Below are positions 22,080 to 51,872 of a stretch of DNA of 64,000 bases, piece by piece (position 1 is the first letter of the stretch; each line of letters starts with the position of its first letter). The position numbers were made by a program, and so were the translations under genes. The notes beneath the pieces are model-generated. The model ran no database searches, was not told where the DNA came from, and saw only the letters and a list, made by a program, of their open reading frames with translations. This stretch comes from Antedon mediterranea (Eukaryota > Animalia > Echinodermata), in the NCBI RefSeq assembly GCF_964355755.1, contig NC_092680.1:1488001-1552000 (forward strand), in the 5' to 3' direction.

Positions 22080-23365
22080 GGAGTTAGAATCAGTCAGTAT
22101 TCTTAAACACCACTAATAAGGAACAACACTTACGACATATCACTCACTCTTCCCTGGTGTGAGGAGTGAGAACCAGTCAGTATTCTTAAACACCCTTACT
22201 AAGGAACAATACTTACCACATCTCACTCACTCTTCCCTGGTGTGAGGAGTGAGAATCGGTCAGTATTCTAAACACCTTTACTAAGGAACAATACTTACCA
22301 TATCTCACTCACTCTTCCCTGGTGTGAGGAGTGAGAATCGGTCAGTATTCTAAACACCCCTACTAAAGAACAATACTTACCATATCTCACTCACTCTTCC
22401 CTGGTGTGAGGAGTGAGAATCGGTCAGTATTCTTAAACACCACTACTAAGGAACAATACTTACAACATCTCACTCACTCTTCCCTGGTGTGAGGAGTGAG
22501 AATCGGTCAGTATTCTAAACACCCCTACTAAGGAACAACACTTACCACATCTCACTCACTCTTCCCTGGTGTGATGAGTGAGAACCAGTTAGTATTCTAA
22601 ACACCCCTACTAAGAAACAATACTTACCACATCTCACTCACTCTTCCCTGGTGTGAGGAGTGAGAATCGGTCAGTATTCTTAAACACCCCTACTAAGGAA
22701 CAACACTTACGACATATCACTCACTCTTCCCTGGTGTGAGGAGTGAGAATCAGTCAGTATTCTTAAACACCCCTACTAAGGAACAATACTTACCATATCT
22801 CACTCACTCTTCCCTGGTGTGATGAGTGAGAACCAGTTAGTATTCTTAAACACCCCTACTAAGAAACAATACTTACCATATCTCACTCACTCTTCCCTGG
22901 TGTGATGAGTGAGAATCAGTCAGTATTCTTAAACACCCCTACTAAGGAACAACACTTACCACATCTCACTCACTCTTCCCTGGTGTGAGGAATGAGAACC
23001 AGTCAGTATTCTTAAACACCCCTACTAAAGAACAATACTTACCACATCTCACTCACTCTTCCCTGGTGTGAGGAATGAGAACCAGTCAGTATTCTTAAAC
23101 ACCCCTACTAAGGAACAACACTTACCACATCTCACTCACTCTTCCCTGGTGTGAGGAGTGAGAATCAGTCAGTATTCTTAAACACCCCTACTAAGCAACA
23201 ACACTTACCACATCTCACTCACTCTTCCCTGGTATGAGGAGTGAGAATCCGTCAGTATTCTTAAACACCCCTACTAAGCAACAACACTTACCACATCTCA
23301 CTCACTCTTCCCTGGTATGAGGAGTGAGAATCAGTTAGTATTCTTAAACAAGAACCAATACTTAC
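22080..23365. repeat. 82-83-bp minisatellite, about 15 copies, beginning at the exon 7 donor
   Basis: actcttccctggt recurs at 23138, 23221 and 23304 (period 83), first copy at 22146. Confidence 0.97.
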
Positions 23366-23493
23366 CATATTCCTTTCATAACTATAGCTTCCAGGACCTG
23401 CAGTGTAGTCATCAACGTATCGTCCTAAGTGTCTGTGATGATGATGGTGTGATGGACTTGAGTTTACATCACTTGTATAATCACTGTCTTCTG
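23366..23493 (-). CDS. unc-13: unc-13 exon 7 (128 nt): AEDSDYTSDVNSSPSHHHHHRHLGRYVDDYTAGPGSYSYERNM
   Basis: tttatag acceptor and ATG|gtaagt donor; phase 1 to phase 0; EDSDYTSD resembles the DSDY(R/T)S(D/E) motif of the Unc13 N-terminal region. Confidence 0.9.
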
Positions 23494-23908: not shown

Positions 23909-24022
23909 CCTCTGAAAACTCCCTGTTGCCTGTCTTATAGGGCTGTTCCTTTATTATTTCTTGCTCCATAATATCATTTATTACTTTATACTTAATGCTT
24001 TCTGTTTCTTGAGCTTCAAAAT
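23909..24022 (-). CDS. unc-13: unc-13 exon 6 (114 nt): DFEAQETESIKYKVINDIMEQEIIKEQPYKTGNREFSE
   Basis: ttttttcag acceptor and gtatgt donor; phase 1 to phase 1; positionally the helix following C2A; lies within ORF 23835..24083. Confidence 0.88.
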
Positions 24023-24685: not shown

Positions 24686-25400
24686 AACAAGGTACATAAA
24701 AGGTACAAAATATCAAGTCACATCAAACTAAGCAGACATCATAATTTGTACAAGATGGAAATTCAAATTTACTACTACTACCAATACTATTGCTTGAATG
24801 CCCCGTTTACAATTTCACTACCTTTCAAGCATTATCCCGCATGTCCCGCAACTTCCCATGCATGGCCATGTAGGACCAACATTTGTGCAGGTGTCAACAG
24901 GGCTTAACTCTTGTAAATTCTATATTTATTTTAATTAAAATTGGTATTCATAAATACTGTACATCATTATCTTCTAATAATAATATTTTTTAGCTGTTTT
25001 GTTTGTGAGTGATTGAATGATATATCGCAATAGTAAATTTGCGCATTGCCCTAAACTATTATAAGGTTGGGATAACAAAAAACCATAGTATGCTTATAGC
25101 GTAAAACGACAATATACGTTTTAAAACAATCTATTAGACCTCCGCTTAAATGCGACAATGGTATATAAAACAAGTAATACGGATATAACTAATAAAAAAA
25201 TTAATTGCTATACAAGAATAAACATAGAAAACAAGGTACAAAATTAAGTATTACATAGATATACAGTGAGATAATAAAATGGTAAAATATTTGTCTTAAT
25301 TAGTTTTAATATAAAACACTGCAGAAAAATAGTGACAGGTAAGGATCTATAGTATTTAAAAGTATATAAATAATTAGGTTAAACCATAAATAGCTTGTAC

Positions 25401-25424
25401 CTTTAGTAGTGTCTGTGGCTTTAC
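25401..25424 (-). CDS. unc-13: candidate 24-nt alternative microexon (GKATDTTK) between exons 5 and 6
   Basis: ttttttattttgccatgctttag|GTAAAGCCACAGACACTACTAAAG|gtacaag; symmetric phase 1, no stop codon, UGC motifs in the pyrimidine tract. Confidence 0.6.
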
Positions 25425-27029
25425 CTAAAGCATGGCAAAATAAAAAATATATACTTAAAATAAAGCAGCATGTTACATAAAATAAATTATAATTTTGCTA
25501 AGTAAAACCAGTAACAAAATGTCAGTGAATTGTGGACACATATCAGGATCTGTAACGAAGTGTTTTCGTAATGATGTGTCCATTGAATAGGGCTGGATTG
25601 TAGAAAAAGTGCCCACTTAATAGTAGATCTACAGTATACTAACTATTAATGGTACAAACTGAAAAACTTTTACATCAACCATAAAAAATATACTATGAGT
25701 CACTGACTATAGTTATAGCTATAGTTATCCAAATCTCACTTTGTACTATGAGATATTACCCAAGATAAGTGCAATAAAGTTTTCAAAAGTTCCACATACA
25801 GGACAATTTAAGTACCGTACTATTCAAATATTAAACATTGTTTAATTGCCAATAGATAGCAAATGTAAAATAAGTTTTTTTATGGTAAATATTAAAGTTA
25901 CAACAAAATAACACCTAATTAGCTGGGCAGATCTGGGATGCGCTAATATAGTCAAAATATCATCCTTTATTCAAAATACATTACAAAATTACAGGTGTGA
26001 TCATACAGAAAAATAAAATATCTCAATAAATGAATACTAGGTTACAATTTAAAAGAGAATTAAACTATACAATAGGGGCAGAGCCGCAGAGGACAAACAA
26101 AATGGGATCCCTTAGCACTACTGCATGGAGCCTCCCCTGTAAAAACAGTATGGATACTAGTTTTACAAGGATTCGACAGAGTTTTCATATTAGTTTGAAA
26201 CGTAACTTTGGTCAACTTGAAAATGAATAATCTTTTACCAAGTCCATTTATCATATGTATTTAAAAACTCAAATAAAAAAATCAATAACATAAACATTGC
26301 AAATTTCATCCGAGGTCAATATAACGACCTTTTATATATGTGACGGATGAACACTTAAAGATATCATAATTTTGGAGACATACAACCTGACTGAAAATGC
26401 AGTGATGGAAAGGGTATAAAGTATGTACATTGCTGAGAAGAAAACACTTTATTTATGTTTGAGTGTTAATTAACTGCCATGTTTTAACGAACCTAGCTAA
26501 ATTAACTATATTACTTTCTTGCACAAACAATATTGAACTTGAGCCAAGCAAAAACTAGGTCATCTATTATGACAGAATTAATCACCAATATAAAATATGC
26601 TTAAATTTGTAGTTGTTATAGTATAAGACTATCTATATTTTTATATATCGTATTCAGGTTGTGTAATTTGTTTTATTGATTTTCAAATGTTTTGTTGAAA
26701 CAATTTTCTCAATGTAAATTTCTTTCCCTTTTTTTCGTTTATTGATTACACATTGACTAAATGAATGCTTGTAAAAATATAACAATAACACTACTTTGCT
26801 ATAATATCTATTTTTCACTAAACAATCTATTCAACAACACGTTTTGTATAATGTTGCCCTTGAAGAAACTAGGACGACTAATACTCAACGTAAAAACATA
26901 AAAAAAAAAAAACTGACTTTCTTGAATAAAACTCAATTTATCACATTTTATACCATACATAAAAAAATGAATCACACATTTCCAATATATTCAATATTAT
27001 ATCATTTAACTGTATAAAGTATACCGTAC

Positions 27030-27153
27030 CTGTTGGCAGTTCAAAACGGGCATCAATTAAAACAGTGTGACCGGTTGGATTACTTGTTCCTGTAATGTGA
27101 CCATTTTTCATTTCCACCTCTCGATCTAAAGATAACCATTCTCCATCACCTTC
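27030..27153 (-). CDS. unc-13: unc-13 exon 5 (124 nt): EGDGEWLSLDREVEMKNGHITGTSNPTGHTVLIDARFELPT
   Basis: ctatag acceptor and gtacgg donor; phase 0 to phase 1; matches Munc13 EGPGEWLTLD...[21 protein letters not shown]. Confidence 0.96.
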
Positions 27154-28982: not shown

Positions 28983-29100
28983 CTTATTGGATTGACGTAT
29001 ATTAATTAACGGAACCCACGCTGTACCAAGTAACGTATCCCAAATTAATCCTTTCGTCCAAAGTTCAATAATTAGTCCGTGATCCAATTGGTTGGTTTCA
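28983..29100 (-). CDS. unc-13: unc-13 exon 4 (118 nt), C2A: [39 protein letters not shown]
   Basis: ttctag acceptor and gtaag donor; phase 2 to phase 0; matches Munc13 [31 protein letters not shown]; absent from the ORF track. Confidence 0.96.
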
Positions 29101-29342: not shown

Positions 29343-29497
29343 TAAAGCTCTGTTTACACTATCAAACTAGCTTGTGATGTGCCCAAATATGGTAGTGATA
29401 TACCCAAATATGGTAGTGATATGACATCATCATGTCCCTGTATGGGCACTTCACATTTTGTTGTCACATAAAGTTTGATAGTGTAGACAGAGCTTTA
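29343..29497 (+). mobile_element. palindromic MITE, family A (TIR TAAAGCTCTGTCTACACTATCAAAC; internal CCCAAATATGGTAGTGATAT repeats)
   Basis: Long terminal inverted repeats ending in TA; eight related copies in the window. Confidence 0.85.
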
Positions 29498-29848
29498 ATC
29501 ATAAAAATGCTTCTTTTTTTTAGATTCTGTTAATGTGGATTTTACTACTGTTTATTGTTTCTTCTTTTTTTCATTTATTATTCCGATAAATAGCAGTAAT
29601 TAAAATTATTGTTAATTTGCACAAATCATGGACTAATTAGGATATTCATAGGAAATGTTGAAATATATTAATATGTTATACTGCAAACACACACACACAC
29701 AATATAAACCAGAAAATCAATAGTATTTCATAACTACACTGAACTAATATTACATGGGAGACTATACATTTTTTAATGGTCAGATAGATACAGTAATATT
29801 AATATCCTTAGATACGGTATTTTGTTCCTGACTATGTTTTTACTGAAC

Positions 29849-29990
29849 TAAAACTCTGTCTATACTTACAAATTAGTTTGACAAAAAATGTGTGATGTGT
29901 CCAAATGGTATTGACATGACATCATCATGTCTGTTATATGGGCACATCACATTTGTGTTGTCACATTAAGTTTGTGTAGACAAGGCTTTA
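29849..29990 (+). mobile_element. MITE family A copy (diverged)
   Basis: aaaactctgtctatac...gtgatgtgtccaaatgg...gtgtagacaaggcttta. Confidence 0.7.
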
Positions 29991-30099
29991 TTTGAGAGTA
30001 TGACCAACAGAACAAATTTCTACAAAATGTTTTAGAGATATGGGAGGGAGGAGGGGAATTATTATGTGTGGGATTAAGGTTGAAAATCATTATAAAGAT

Positions 30100-30460
30100 G
30101 TTTAACCATAGCCATAACATTCCCTGTAATGGTTTGAGGATCACTCACTCTCCATGGTTCTGTGGTAGAACAATTCTTCTCACAACAGTAGCTCATGTGC
30201 ACTTTAAAGAACCTAGTACATCTTTCAAGATGAGTAGGGGGTTACCCCGGTGTATTAGTAGGGGGTTACCCTGGTGTATTAGTAGGGGGTTACCCCGGTG
30301 TATTAGTAGGGGGTTACCCCGGTGTATTAGTAGGGGGTTACCCCGGTGTATTAGTAGGGGGTTACCCCGGTGTATTAGTAGGGGGTTACACACAGCCATT
30401 GAGTGGTACTCTGAGACAACAGTCTTTGATTGGAGAGGCTGCCCAGTATAAAGAAATAAA
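30100..30460 (+). mobile_element. diverged copy of the Deu-like SINE with an internal 24-bp tandem expansion (30233-30389)
   Basis: Shares catggttctg..gtagaac, gtgcactttaaagaacctagtacatc and cccagtataaaga with 58003-58320. Confidence 0.8.
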
Positions 30461-32060: not shown

Positions 32061-32204
32061 ATCTACAGTATCAAACTAGTTAGACAAAAAAAAGTGATGT
32101 GTCCAAGATAGTGATATACCCAAATATGGGAGTGATATGACATCATCATTGGGCACATCAAATTTATTTTGTCACATAAAGTTTGATAGTGTAGACAGAG
32201 CTTA
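32061..32204 (+). mobile_element. MITE family A copy
   Basis: tctacagtatcaaactag...gtcacataaagtttgatagtgtagacagagctta. Confidence 0.75.
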
Positions 32205-35200
32205 AAAAGAAATGGTAACGATGTTGAAGATATATTGTTTGAAGGTTTGGATGTTGAAGATAAAAATGGATATATTTGTAAAAGTGGAATAATTCCATAA
32301 TTATGATTTATTACTATGACTAATATTTTCAAGAACTATTAGTATGGATGACTAGTACTTATTACTATGCATGATTGAAAAGATCACACTCATAATTATT
32401 ACCTATCAATAACATTTAGACTATATAATATAAGTAAGAGCAGTCTCTGTGTGAATCACGTTAACATCAATTTTCAACATCAACAAAAGCAAAATAATTA
32501 CACAAAAATGAAGATTAATAAAATCAGACTTTGAATAGGCCATTTTGTAGTTTTAGGAAAGTTAATCACTTTAGCTTATAAATGACAAAATAAATGGTTA
32601 AATTCAACCAAAATGCTTGCTTAAATTTACAGTTTTTTTTCAAGTAAATCATTTTTTTCCCATCCAATTTTTGGTCACAATGAATAACTATTATGTGACA
32701 TTAAAATGACATACATCTTAAAAAAAAAAAAAAAAACCTGCTGAAGTAGTAAAGAATATTAAAAAAAGGCAATAACAAAAAACCCCTAAAATAAGTATAC
32801 ATTCGGATTATAAATGAAAAACTATTGTGTTTTAAGAATGTGCTAGATTATTCCAACTGTAAACTGAAGAAAATTATTATGAATGTTCACAGAATCAGTT
32901 TCGTGGATAATCAATAGAGCATGACTGTGAAAGTCACGTCGAAAAGCGGATTGAAGAACGATCGGCTGCATACGCTTGCCACTGCAAAGCGAGCCTGATA
33001 CGTGCATTTGCCATTATAATAGCATGCATGACCGGTTTATTACATGTTTAGAATGACGAGTAGCCTGGCTGAATTACAGTCAGTGCATTAGCTGCTTCAT
33101 AGAGTCAAGTTTGTATCAGAAAACTAGAATATTTAACAGATCAAATTTCTGATGGATCAGGTTCCCTATGCATTGTGTTTTGTTTAACAAAAATTAATGC
33201 AGTTATCTTTTGAATAATTCTTGTAATTAGTTTCTTTGAGGCACGGATCATTTTTCTAATGTTATCAATGGCTCAGAATATAAAGCATAATATGTTGATT
33301 GTACGCAATGACCAACAAACATTGTTCTGTGAATAAAATAATATTATATGTCATAATTACTATAAATTAAATCGTTACAATTAATTAGTTAATATTAATT
33401 AATATTTGAAATAATTTATTTATTACTTGATTTTATATTCATTTAATTCTAAATTTGTTATTTAAACGTTACATTTTCATTAAAAATTTAAATAGGATGG
33501 AAAATGGGCAGGGCATAACAATGTGAAATTGAGTGTAATTTTCAAACTTATTGCTGGTTTTAGCATCAAATATTATCTGTTCTTATATTATATTATTATG
33601 TTATTATCTGTCTGTTGTCTGTCTGTTCTAATTTATTAACATCAGTCATACAACAATTTTTATATTTATCTAAAGTTATCATTTTCAATAAAAAAAAATT
33701 ATATTTAACTTGAAAAGAAAAATCATTTTAAAAGATTGGAAGAATAATCAAAAATATTTTTTTTTAGAAAATGCACACAAGAAAAATTTTAAATTATCAA
33801 AATAATTCTGGCATGAATAGGACTACATTTTGACTAGCAGACAGTAGCATGTTTTACATTTGTACTTACCTTTTGACAACTGAAGTAAAAATGTCTCATT
33901 TAAGTAAAGGTAATTTAAAGTTAGGAATACAGTAATAACAAATTTGCTTCCTAGAATAATTATTTTGTAACAATACGTGGTGAATATTAAATAAATACAT
34001 GTAATTAAACTAGGTGGAGGAGGTGTACGAGGACATTCGCCTCCATCAGTCATTCATCCAGGTTAAAGGTCATTTAAGGTCTTCCACCAACCTAGAGGTA
34101 CATCCCTATAATAATATAATTACCATTTTCTGACGCATTCTCATACTAATTATTTTTCAATATAAAACAAAGAAAAAGAATATAACTTAATGGAATGCTT
34201 TATTATAATAATTTGCTTTCTTCAAGGTAATTTTCTGTTCAATCAATATCATCCTTAGATGTTTTCTTGATTGTACTTTAAATCAATTTTACACTCACAA
34301 ATAATTGATTCTGCGGTGAAACCACTAATGAATAGACAAGTAAATACATTGCTGATAAAACACCAAGATTCTTTTGGCAATTACAGTGTTTTATCTGGAC
34401 AATTGCTCGATAAACCTCATGTGTACACAACTATTAAGAGACCAATAATAATATAAATAATATTATAGTATTATTATAGCAGGGGATGCCTAAGGTGCTC
34501 TAGATGCCTTGTTTTGTTCAACATAATTTGGCTTCTTGGTAGATAAATAAAAGTGGAAAAGTGAATTGTAGTCAAATCACCTTTCTATTATGACACATCA
34601 TGAGATAGTGTACCATTTAAAATTGGTATCTTAGTTGTATGTAAAGCATATACTACTTTAGACATACATCATCACTGTCATAGGGCCAGAACCTCCTTAT
34701 CATCAGAGGGAAAATATGAATGAGCCGTTATCTAAATTAAAAGAAATTCAGTAAAAGCTAAATTTGTTATTCAATTCGACTGAAAGTTTCATCAAGGAAG
34801 TATGAACATTTTGAGCGAGATAAAAAACATCTTACTCGAGAATCAAACCTGGAATCTTCTGTTTCAAATAGCTTACATACATTCATAAAATGCACATGAA
34901 AAAAATTATAGTAGTCAAAATTTGGAACTTTAAACGAAGCATTTAAGCTCCAAATCTGAGCCCACGCACTGCGAAATGGAGTGAAATCCGGGATAGAGGC
35001 ATGATAAATATTCTCTAATGTAAACATACAGATTGTAATGTTAATTGAGTGGTCTGTTTAAGACTCTATTAAAATGACTAATACATCGGGGAATCAACTT
35101 GCTATCCACATAATTGATATTTAATTGCTGGAAATCCATATCCTTTACATGAAACTACCTATCCTTTTTATATCCTCCTTCACAAAATAGTAGGACAGAA

Positions 35201-36345: not shown

Positions 36346-36517
36346 TAAAGCTCGGTTTACACTATCAAACTGACAAAAAAATATGATGTGCCCATATATG
36401 GACATAATGACTAACATACTTTGGCATATCACTACCATATTTGGGCATATCACTACCATATTTGGAAAGATCATACTTTTTTTGTCAAACTAGTTTGATA
36501 GTGTAGACAGAGCTTTA
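36346..36517 (-). mobile_element. MITE family A copy (reverse orientation)
   Basis: Both TIRs present; internal gcatatcactaccatatttgg repeats. Confidence 0.8.
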
Positions 36518-37504
36518 AAAAAATGTTTAATACTTGTCCAACATTAAAAATTAATGGAAAACCAATGTTGGATCAGTTTTGGCCACCAAGAGAGGGTAAT
36601 CTTTGACACTAGTTGCTCTCAGGGCAACAAAAACATCTACAATCTTCAACATCTACATCTCAGGATTAGATCATCCACTAGTTTGTCCACACATCATAAT
36701 ATGCTTTATGATGTAGTACATAGGTATTTGACAAAATTGTACAAATGTACACATAATTGTCATAATTTTTTCTTTTATATAATTATTCTTCGAACTATAA
36801 CAACTTTCACTTGCAGTTTTACACAATATTCTGATTAATACCCATATCTCAAGAGTTGGTTCACAATCAATCACTCTTTTCAACAGTGTCTATGTTTCTT
36901 AGGCAATTCTAACACATTACAATAATTATTTTGAGATGAAGCTTTCAGTAATTCAAGCAATTCAAATATATCATTGTTTCTGTAGAAGCAACGACAATAT
37001 GAGTCCCAAGTGTGACCCATTAATGATGTAAATGTGTTAGATTCTACAAGTACAAACCCCAAAATTTACTTACAGGAAAGACAAGAATATGCTAAAGTAA
37101 ATTCAATAACCATAACGAGTCTCTGTAATGAATGACAAATAATGTAAAGCCCTTTTGGAAAATGAAAACGCAGAAACCAAGTGTCTGTAAACGGTGTCTT
37201 TGTTAATAATTCTTTGTTGAAGGTCAGCTAACAGTGAGAAATTCTACTGAACTCACTCCTGTTGGACCTTTGCAAAGACTCTATTATCGCAAATAAACAC
37301 AAATTTTACATCTTTCAATTTAAAAAGAAACTTATTTCAAAAGGCTTTTGTTCTGCTTCACTGTAAAAATATAGTTGGGGTTATTATGAATGTTTTATAA
37401 TAAACAATAGACATTTTAAAGTTGAATTACTACCCTTTAAGCATTTTAATTTAATACAGTAATATTGTATAATATTCAAACCAAATGAGTACTCTCCTAG
37501 CTAG

Positions 37505-37801: not shown

Positions 37802-37901
37802 AACATAAAATCTTGATCCCATGACGGGTTGTTTCCTCGGAAAGTAACGGTGGTAGATTTGACATTTTCTAACTTAAGTGTTACGTAGGAATGGAATTTA
37901 T
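37802..37901 (-). CDS. unc-13: unc-13 exon 3 (100 nt), C2A: [33 protein letters not shown](F)
   Basis: ttttcag acceptor and gtaagt donor; closely matches Munc13 [34 protein letters not shown]; the homodimer residue equivalent to Munc13-1 K32 is conserved. Confidence 0.96.
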
Positions 37902-39488
37902 CTGAAAAAATAAACAGAAATAATGATACTGATTTAAAATTACATTTATACAAATAATGTGCCAAAGGAGAGAAAACAAAAATAGAAATGCAAAAAATAA
38001 GTTTTAGAAACATTGCTTTACACTGGTGGGTAAGATAAGACAGGCAGTTCAAATGAGAATATGTTCAGTGGTAAAGTATACTTTTGAATCAAACTACTTT
38101 AAGACTCCTACTTTTAAAAAAAGGAAATGATGAAAAAGCCTGTGAAAAAGAACCTTTATTCCAAAAGAAAATAAAAAGAATGCCAGAAAAGGTAAATTAA
38201 AGTAATAGTTAGAAATTGTAATCAAGCATTTTAATAACTAAAATATGAAAAAATAAAGAACAAACTCATTATTTGTATACCTTCACTAAAACCAAACCCA
38301 CTCAAAAAATCTATAAAACAAAAAAGCAACATAAAAAGTGAAGATAGCAAAACTGTAAACATGTCACATAACATTCTAATTTACATTCAAATATATTGTT
38401 TCTTTATGTTTTTATAACCATAAAGAAAAGAATAAACATTAAAGATGTGTTCAATAACATGTTCATTAATTAGTGTAGGTTTACAGCAAAGGGTTCAATT
38501 CAATTAAATAAAACTGTAATTTATTCCACACTGAAAACATGTGCTTTACTGTATAATATGTTGAAATACTGAACATTGGGGAAAAACAAATACAAATAAA
38601 AATTCTTTAAAAATTACTTCAAAAATGTTTATCTGGCTTTGATTGCCAAAACCATCAATATTAACTACACAAGCGCAGTCTGAAATTATCTTTGCATTGC
38701 ACATGGTTTCAATACAAACAGACCATGAATATGAAGATATTGGACAAAGATAGCATTAAAAACAGTCTTGAAATAATTTAAAAATTACTTTTACAAATAA
38801 AGTATTTAAATTCAAATTGTAACGATTTTAATGAGAGGTAGGTAGCACAAACACACAGTTAATGACTCTGAAAAGTGGCTATTATCAGAATATCCTGCAA
38901 GTCTAATCAATATCTATTATTTGTAATAACCTTTTCTTGTCCTACTTTTATCCTAAGATTTTCTTTCATGAATTAAAACATAATATACATTAATAAAAAA
39001 TGTTTTAATCTATAAAAAGGTTTACTTGTCGAATTTGAACTAAGATGTAAATACCTATGTATAGAAATGACATTTACAGTAACCAATTAAATATTTAATT
39101 TTAGTATGCAGATTTTACTTTAATGAATACATATTTTAGTAATCTGTTGGTGATTAGTTTCAGAAGTGATCATCAATAATAATCGATTATTCACTATCAA
39201 AAAATTATTTTTATCACTAGACTTAGACTGGCAACGAGGCGGTCAAAATGACGTCTGTTTGTAACAAAGCAAATTAAAGAGAAAACAAATTCAAATGTGC
39301 AAGCTAACAAACATTTGTTAAGATTGATTCACTATGCTATGGCACTGAGTCTAATGTAAAATGGATTGAACTGAATAAGAAATACCATTTAAAACATTTT
39401 AACATGACAAGAATAACTTGAAAAAGGTTTTATCATAACTAAATAGTCAGTTTATAAAGTGTTAAAAATCCATAACACTGTAGAACCC

Positions 39489-51842: not shown

Positions 51843-51872
51843 CTGGTGGGCCTTGGAGTCGAGCTCTTTTTA
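51843..51872 (-). CDS. unc-13: unc-13/Munc13 coding exon 2 (30 nt), start of C2A domain: (V)KRARLQGPP(D)
   Basis: Minus strand tttttcag|TAAAAAGAGCTCGACTCCAAGGCCCACCAG|gtaag; phase 1 to phase 1; resembles Munc13 VKKAKFDGAQE; joins in frame to the exon at 37802-37901. Confidence 0.85.

Follow-up and report, generated by a model that had tools for sequence, protein, structure and literature searches.

The locus raises two linked questions. The first is whether a 24-nt cassette on the minus strand, proposed by a first-pass annotation as a microexon of unc-13, is a genuine alternative exon of the crinoid Antedon mediterranea. The second is whether its inclusion would switch Unc13 between a homodimer and a heterodimer with RIM, as that annotation supposed. 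The window, the whole 64,000-nt stretch of Antedon DNA analyzed here, encodes crinoid unc-13. Exon 5 is a 100% match to Antedon mediterranea unc-13, and residues 8-595 of RefSeq isoform X1 map to the window in ten identical blocks. All exons lie on the minus strand. C2A is encoded by exon 2 (51843..51872, 30 nt), exon 3 (37802..37901, with the equivalents of Munc13-1 Y23, V31, K32 and S33), exon 4 (28983..29100, with those of E63, W65 and D72) and exon 5 (27030..27153, 124 nt), which forms the C2A end and carries the E128 equivalent within RFELPT. Exon 6 (23909..24022, 114 nt, phase 1-1) encodes the post-C2A helix with the E137 equivalent and is followed by exon 7 (23366..23493), which has a tandem NAGNAG acceptor that adds or removes one Ala. 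Neither coding exon 1, previously assumed to be 22 nt, nor the exons past residue 595 were found within the window. The C2A fold, the homodimer residues Y23, K32, E63, W65 and D72, and E128 are all present, as in long-isoform Unc13.

The cassette was recovered as first described. The minus strand reads ttttattttgccatgctttag/GTAAAGCCACAGACACTACTAAAG/gtacaag, the exon itself occupying 25424-25401 between exon 5 (27153-27030) and exon 6 (24022-23909). It is 24 nt long, in frame, free of stop codons and symmetric in phase (1-1), and its translation, GKATDTTK, corresponds to residues 142-149 of RefSeq isoform X1. With this length, inside the 3-27 nt range of microexons, and with canonical AG and GT sites, it classes as a microexon. 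Its assignment to intron 5 holds only if an optional 30-nt exon at 38310-38281 is left out of the count, and fails otherwise. The 3' splice-site region (25425..25475, minus strand) contains a T-rich tract, an AG-free zone of 27 nt upstream of the acceptor and the UGC motifs that had been noted there, at -8 and -13 with further copies at -43 and -46; all four lie in a YGCY context. No UCUC was found in the 250 nt upstream, the pyrimidine tract being T-rich instead. The nearest YTRAY branch point lies at -101, outside the 100 nt next to the microexon, with only weaker TNAY matches closer in. The 5' splice site, AAG/gtacaa (25395..25400, minus strand), departs from the common donor consensus at +4 to +6 and is weak there.

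The RefSeq isoforms bear out the cassette as a real alternative exon. GKATDTTK is present in nine of ten Antedon isoforms, models possibly derived from the same assembly as the window, and is skipped in the tenth, X3 (XP_071964537.1), which differs from isoform X1 solely by its absence. RefSeq alternative models as a rule require transcript support. Five sequencing runs contain the stretch and none is recorded as RNA; one sample, run X1, behaves like RNA and probably is RNA. A 1577-nt contig from this run (depth 28.3) covers exon 5, joins 27030 to 24022 with 3007 bases skipped, and extends into exons 4 and 7, and so documents skipping together with the splice sites on either side. Contigs of the DNA-like runs X2 and X5 pass unbroken through the intron. 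No inclusion contig or microexon cover was seen among the contigs of run X1, the one probable RNA run; this is no proof of absence, because contigs lose rare variants.

The 29.9 kb of intron in the gene was surveyed for strings of the form YAG-(3n, 3-51 nt)-GTR, with the antisense strand as control. The sense introns yielded 481 cassettes, of which 39 had a pyrimidine-rich acceptor; 6 of these had a UGC no more than 18 nt away, and 3 of the 6 ended in G; the same filter steps on the antisense strand gave 397, 6, 1 and 0. Two of the three final survivors are annotated exons. The thresholds were chosen after the candidate was seen, and the filter therefore serves as supporting evidence for an unusual site, while the annotated isoforms supply the proof. 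A rarely used cryptic exon, taken up by a gene predictor, would fit the appearance of the skipped form only in the probable RNA run and the 48 cassette-like strings held by the host intron. It fits poorly with the independent genome of a second crinoid, Anneissia japonica, in which this junction also has an alternative exon, likewise starting with G-K and ending with K, and with inserts at this junction in other echinoderms. Annotation noise was judged very unlikely.

Other features of the gene were recorded in passing. The optional 30-nt exon (38281..38310, minus strand; DFLSGFGFSE) lies between the first two C2A strands. It is included in seven of the eight RefSeq isoforms reaching the region, skipped in X5, and preceded by a UGC at -18; no insert of comparable size was found at the same place among the other proteins compared. 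Since it lies inside C2A, its influence on the homodimer could exceed that of the 24-nt exon. Intron 2 contains a further microexon candidate of 15 nt that is not annotated (40361-40347, minus strand). It would encode VVPST in phase 1, has a UGC, a 41-nt AG-free zone and a gtacaa donor identical to that of the 24-nt exon, and occurs in none of the ten RefSeq isoforms. At the exon 7 NAGNAG acceptor (23493-23491, minus strand) run X1 takes the downstream AG, and the same one-residue (Ala) difference separates Anneissia isoforms X1 and X2. A tandem array of ~62-nt units, each with a donor-like gtaag, starts at the exon 7 donor and lies in intron 7 (about 22100-23330). The long intron after exon 9 contains a 158-codon open frame (10086-9610, minus strand) which may serve a C2A-less isoform as its alternative first exon or be a piece of another gene; it had no significant match among the proteins compared. 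Very high-copy interspersed repeats at about 29370-29500, 29930-30190, 32170-32510 and 36400-36520 are joined to one another on opposite strands, as the ends of non-autonomous transposons would be.

Conservation in relatives had been proposed as a check. Protein sequences of relatives were compared, and those of Anneissia, Acanthaster, Diadema, Mytilus, Littorina and Sinanodonta have short position-matched inserts. Anneissia japonica carries GKTSADESK, nine residues, in two of three isoforms; like the Antedon insert, it starts with G-K and ends with K. The starfish Acanthaster has ASGQDK in all five models. The sea urchin Diadema has ASASKSRAPLQ in six of eight, X3 skipping the insert alone and X6 skipping it together with the helix exon; on the protein sequence this insert may come from a single 33-nt exon, or from a shorter one together with an alternative acceptor. 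Among 15 Mytilus rows, two lack the C2A end and 11 of the remaining 13 have DFVA, with both forms present in M. trossulus. DVVA occurs in the periwinkle Littorina (2/2) and the freshwater mussel Sinanodonta (1/1). Of eight sea cucumber (Apostichopus) rows with the C2A end, six keep the helix, none of these with an insert; X6 has AKHRK without the helix and X7 has neither.

No junction insert was present in 19 oyster, five Glandiceps, two Biomphalaria, one Patiria or one Capitella rows. Among the vertebrate matches listed (168 rows), 159 have no insert, eight lack the C2A end and one has an insert; most of them are Unc13B of fish, amphibians, reptiles and birds, from the best 120 of 359 hits with at most 15 members per cluster. 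The single exception among the matches listed, Triplophysa rosa unc-13B X1, has DLNIFST at the C2A/helix junction, from either a microexon or an alternative acceptor. Metagenome loci were scanned for the same arrangement (the best five of seven). Three genomic loci of animals (L001, L002 and L005) contain both flanking exons and gave no UGC-bearing microexon candidate under the filter, L004 is a spliced skip form and L003 stops short of exon 6. Across animals the inserts are 4 to 11 residues long and resemble one another in sequence only within crinoids and within molluscs. Such variation in length and sequence is as expected for a tolerant linker. The protein-level data fit either a shared ancestry or a repeated gain of the inserts.

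The position of the insert was defined against the rat Munc13-1 C2A/RIM structure (2CJS). The Anneissia skip form can be aligned with 2CJS without gaps, and the junction then falls after residue 131, between the equivalents of E128 and E137, and both RIM-binding glutamates are kept in Antedon, as the first-pass annotation had stated. For Antedon isoform X5, the alignment with 2CJS chain A covers residues 2-137. Antedon retains Y23, V31, K32, S33, E63, W65, D72 and E128, the homodimer residues lying upstream of the insert. The L131 position is Thr in Antedon, and the junction is 11 residues from the K144 equivalent, against 13, two residues being missing before it; exon 6 is two residues shorter than in rat, oyster and Anneissia. 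At the W141 position there is His in Anneissia and Leu in oyster and Mytilus. On these alignments the helix of the crinoids has diverged. X5 was modeled with AlphaFold over residues 1-188 from a four-row alignment (mean pLDDT 61.8), and the model has 2CJS as its best fold match. Its last strand ends at 128, followed by coil at 129-139 and a helix at 140-164, the helix being a low-confidence prediction with pLDDT <50 at residues 131-151 and 160-188. The insert sits outside the C2A fold, in the linker.

For the rat complex, the available passages of PMC1472246 describe C2A and the helix gripping opposite ends of the RIM zinc finger across an extended linker, of which only L131 packs well against RIM. 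According to the same passages C2A is enough for homodimerization, its extensions increasing homodimer affinity, and tight RIM binding needs the helix, a helix-less fragment (3-132) failing to co-elute with RIM. The mutational claims of the earlier annotation agree with passages of PMC5436228, in which E128K/E137K abolishes RIM binding and K32E breaks the homodimer. In C. elegans both binding modes exist, and the C2A/RIM interaction is reported to alter release probability, not priming (PMC6389284, in part).

The effect of lengthening the linker was estimated with a worm-like-chain tether, using linkers of 5 or 7 residues, spans of 10-18 Å and persistence lengths of 3 or 5 Å, values that were assumed and not taken from coordinates. 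With these assumed distances the ratio of included to skipped tether was 0.23-2.3 in 13 of 16 parameter sets, a loss of at most about four-fold. It lay far above 1 in the other three, in which the assumed distances overstretch the short linker. The included form gave 18-60 mM in all 16 sets, again under assumed distances. The small change implies that length alone does not turn binding off; it could turn binding on if the short form were strained.

The favored reading, given a probability of about one half, is that the exon is an alternatively spliced microexon of crinoid unc-13 that places eight polar residues in the C2A/helix linker, is likely used mainly in neurons and likely tunes RIM binding. 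Inclusion would loosen the tether of the helix prong, the looser tether would shift RIM affinity by a few fold, and this shift would nudge the homodimer/RIM balance and release probability. An eMIC-domain Srrm234 isoform, possibly with Muscleblind, would drive inclusion through the UGC motifs. As a best reading, tuning was ranked first, little effect on RIM second and a true switch third.

The on/off switch put forward by the first-pass annotation, in which inclusion would abolish or create RIM binding and so flip Unc13 between homodimer and RIM heterodimer, was not supported in that form and is improbable. It draws on the insertion between two glutamates whose double mutation abolishes binding (PMC5436228, in part) and on the need for the helix in tight RIM binding (PMC1472246, in part). 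The three parameter sets with an overstretched Antedon linker also speak for it; there, inclusion could strongly raise binding and act as an on-switch. Against it, the passages of both sources place the glutamates on separate prongs at opposite ends of the zinc finger, so that spacing them apart breaks no single surface. Furthermore, Y23, K32, E63, W65 and D72 are intact and upstream of an insert that lies outside the C2A fold, and the tether change is at most about four-fold in 13 of 16 sets. With the prongs separate, the homodimer surface untouched and so small a loss, a tuner is likelier than a switch.

A regulated microexon of nearly neutral effect on RIM binding, lying in a tolerant linker or acting through threonine phosphorylation or another partner, is possible and was considered less probable than tuning. 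The loose packing of the linker in the rat complex (passages of PMC1472246), the wide variation of inserts between lineages, the diverged crinoid helix and the C. elegans effect on release probability and not priming (passages of PMC6389284) all point this way. What opposes near-neutrality is that two crinoids keep the insert as an optional exon at a single junction and that two bivalve groups and a gastropod have D-[VF]-V-A in common, which together suggest selection.

A better candidate for a switch than the 24-nt exon is the skipping of the whole helix exon. The entire post-C2A helix exon is skipped in Apostichopus X6 and X7, Diadema X6, Glandiceps X4 (acorn worm) and Cimex X4 (bedbug), and is replaced by another exon in Cimex X3; exon 6 skipping was seen in none of the ten Antedon isoforms. 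Poor RIM binding would be expected of the helix-less forms. Taken more broadly, and only tentatively, the post-C2A intron of Unc13 may be a point at which splicing controls the RIM clamp across invertebrates, with almost no such use in vertebrates. Neural microexons in crinoids, starfish, sea urchins and molluscs would set the tether length, and skipping or replacement of the helix exon in sea cucumber, sea urchin, acorn worm and bedbug would remove the second prong to give a homodimer-biased, RIM-poor Unc13. Such a control point would provide invertebrate neurons with a graded, splice-encoded dial on release probability. The linker-lengthened and helix-less natural isoforms are ready-made, testable variants of the clamp.

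Regulation of the 24-nt exon was assessed from its flanking motifs. UGC at -8 and -13 together with the 27-nt AG-free zone matches the pattern of eMIC targets. Within 60 nt upstream, UGC is found at both annotated short optional exons and at none of the eight other exons; its background is 11% of 15-mers in the gene span and 5 of 36 pyrimidine-rich acceptor-like sites. YGCY, the context of all four UGCs, is a Muscleblind motif. In the available text of 10.1101/2021.02.24.432780, eMIC targets are marked by AG-free zones and by a UGC lying near the acceptor, the 5' sites of fly eMIC exons are weak, and the eMIC domain is traced back to the ancestors of bilaterians. An acceptor-near UGC is found in about three quarters of SRRM3/4 microexons but is not strictly required (10.1101/2024.09.17.613571, in part). 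Neural activation of the eMIC/SRRM type is plausible on these motifs.

Inclusion might instead be set by Muscleblind, ELAV-type proteins or weak splice sites, the exon being neither eMIC-driven nor neuron-specific. The uniform YGCY context, the weak 5' site, the missing close UCUC tract and YTRAY branch point, and the occurrence of UGC at 5 of 36 pyrimidine-rich acceptor-like sites of the gene are in keeping with this, as is the control of the C. elegans unc-13 microexon by EXC-7 and MBL-1 (passages of PMC12287369). The closeness of UGC to the AG and the AG-free zone nevertheless match eMIC targets, weak 5' sites are found in fly eMIC exons as well (10.1101/2021.02.24.432780, in part), and UGC is typical of most SRRM3/4 microexons in the passages of 10.1101/2024.09.17.613571. 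Non-eMIC control was therefore kept as a possible but less probable alternative. It bears on regulation alone and would fit either of the readings at the protein level.

The exon is real and already annotated in RefSeq, and is apparently undescribed. Searches on a Munc13 C2A microexon and on echinoderm neural microexons gave no description of it in the titles and abstracts covered, which include few subscription journals; supplements or splicing databases may list the event. What is new is the pattern across phyla and the structural placement. Compared with eMIC/SRRM3/4 microexons, the 24-nt exon shares a length below 27 nt, preservation of frame, UGC near the 3' splice site, an AG-free zone and a synaptic host gene, but differs in being without a UCUC tract or a close YTRAY branch point. 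Compared with the Munc13-1 homodimer/RIM switch (2CJT, 2CJS; PMC1472246, PMC5436228), the fold, the homodimer residues, E128 and the E137 equivalent are conserved in the crinoid. The rat switch differs in being a protein-protein competition, linker splicing not being described in the passages available from these two sources, and the crinoid helix is diverged.

Two other Unc13 microexons are known. The 9-nt VLK microexon of C. elegans and Drosophila unc-13 is, like the crinoid exon, a short in-frame optional exon in an UNC-13 linker, both forms being needed in different neurons, but it sits between CaM and C1 (PMC12287369, in part). Mouse Unc13b has a 6-nt SRRM4-dependent microexon, which is placed between exon 13 and exon 14 and not at the C2A/helix junction (PMC4387716, in part). 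Identity or orthology with either was ruled out by the differing gene positions given in these passages; the known microexons being placed elsewhere, the crinoid 24-nt exon is a different exon. It marks a third Unc13 microexon position, recurrent in echinoderms and molluscs, and offers a clean case for weighing gain of microexons at a hotspot against their inheritance.
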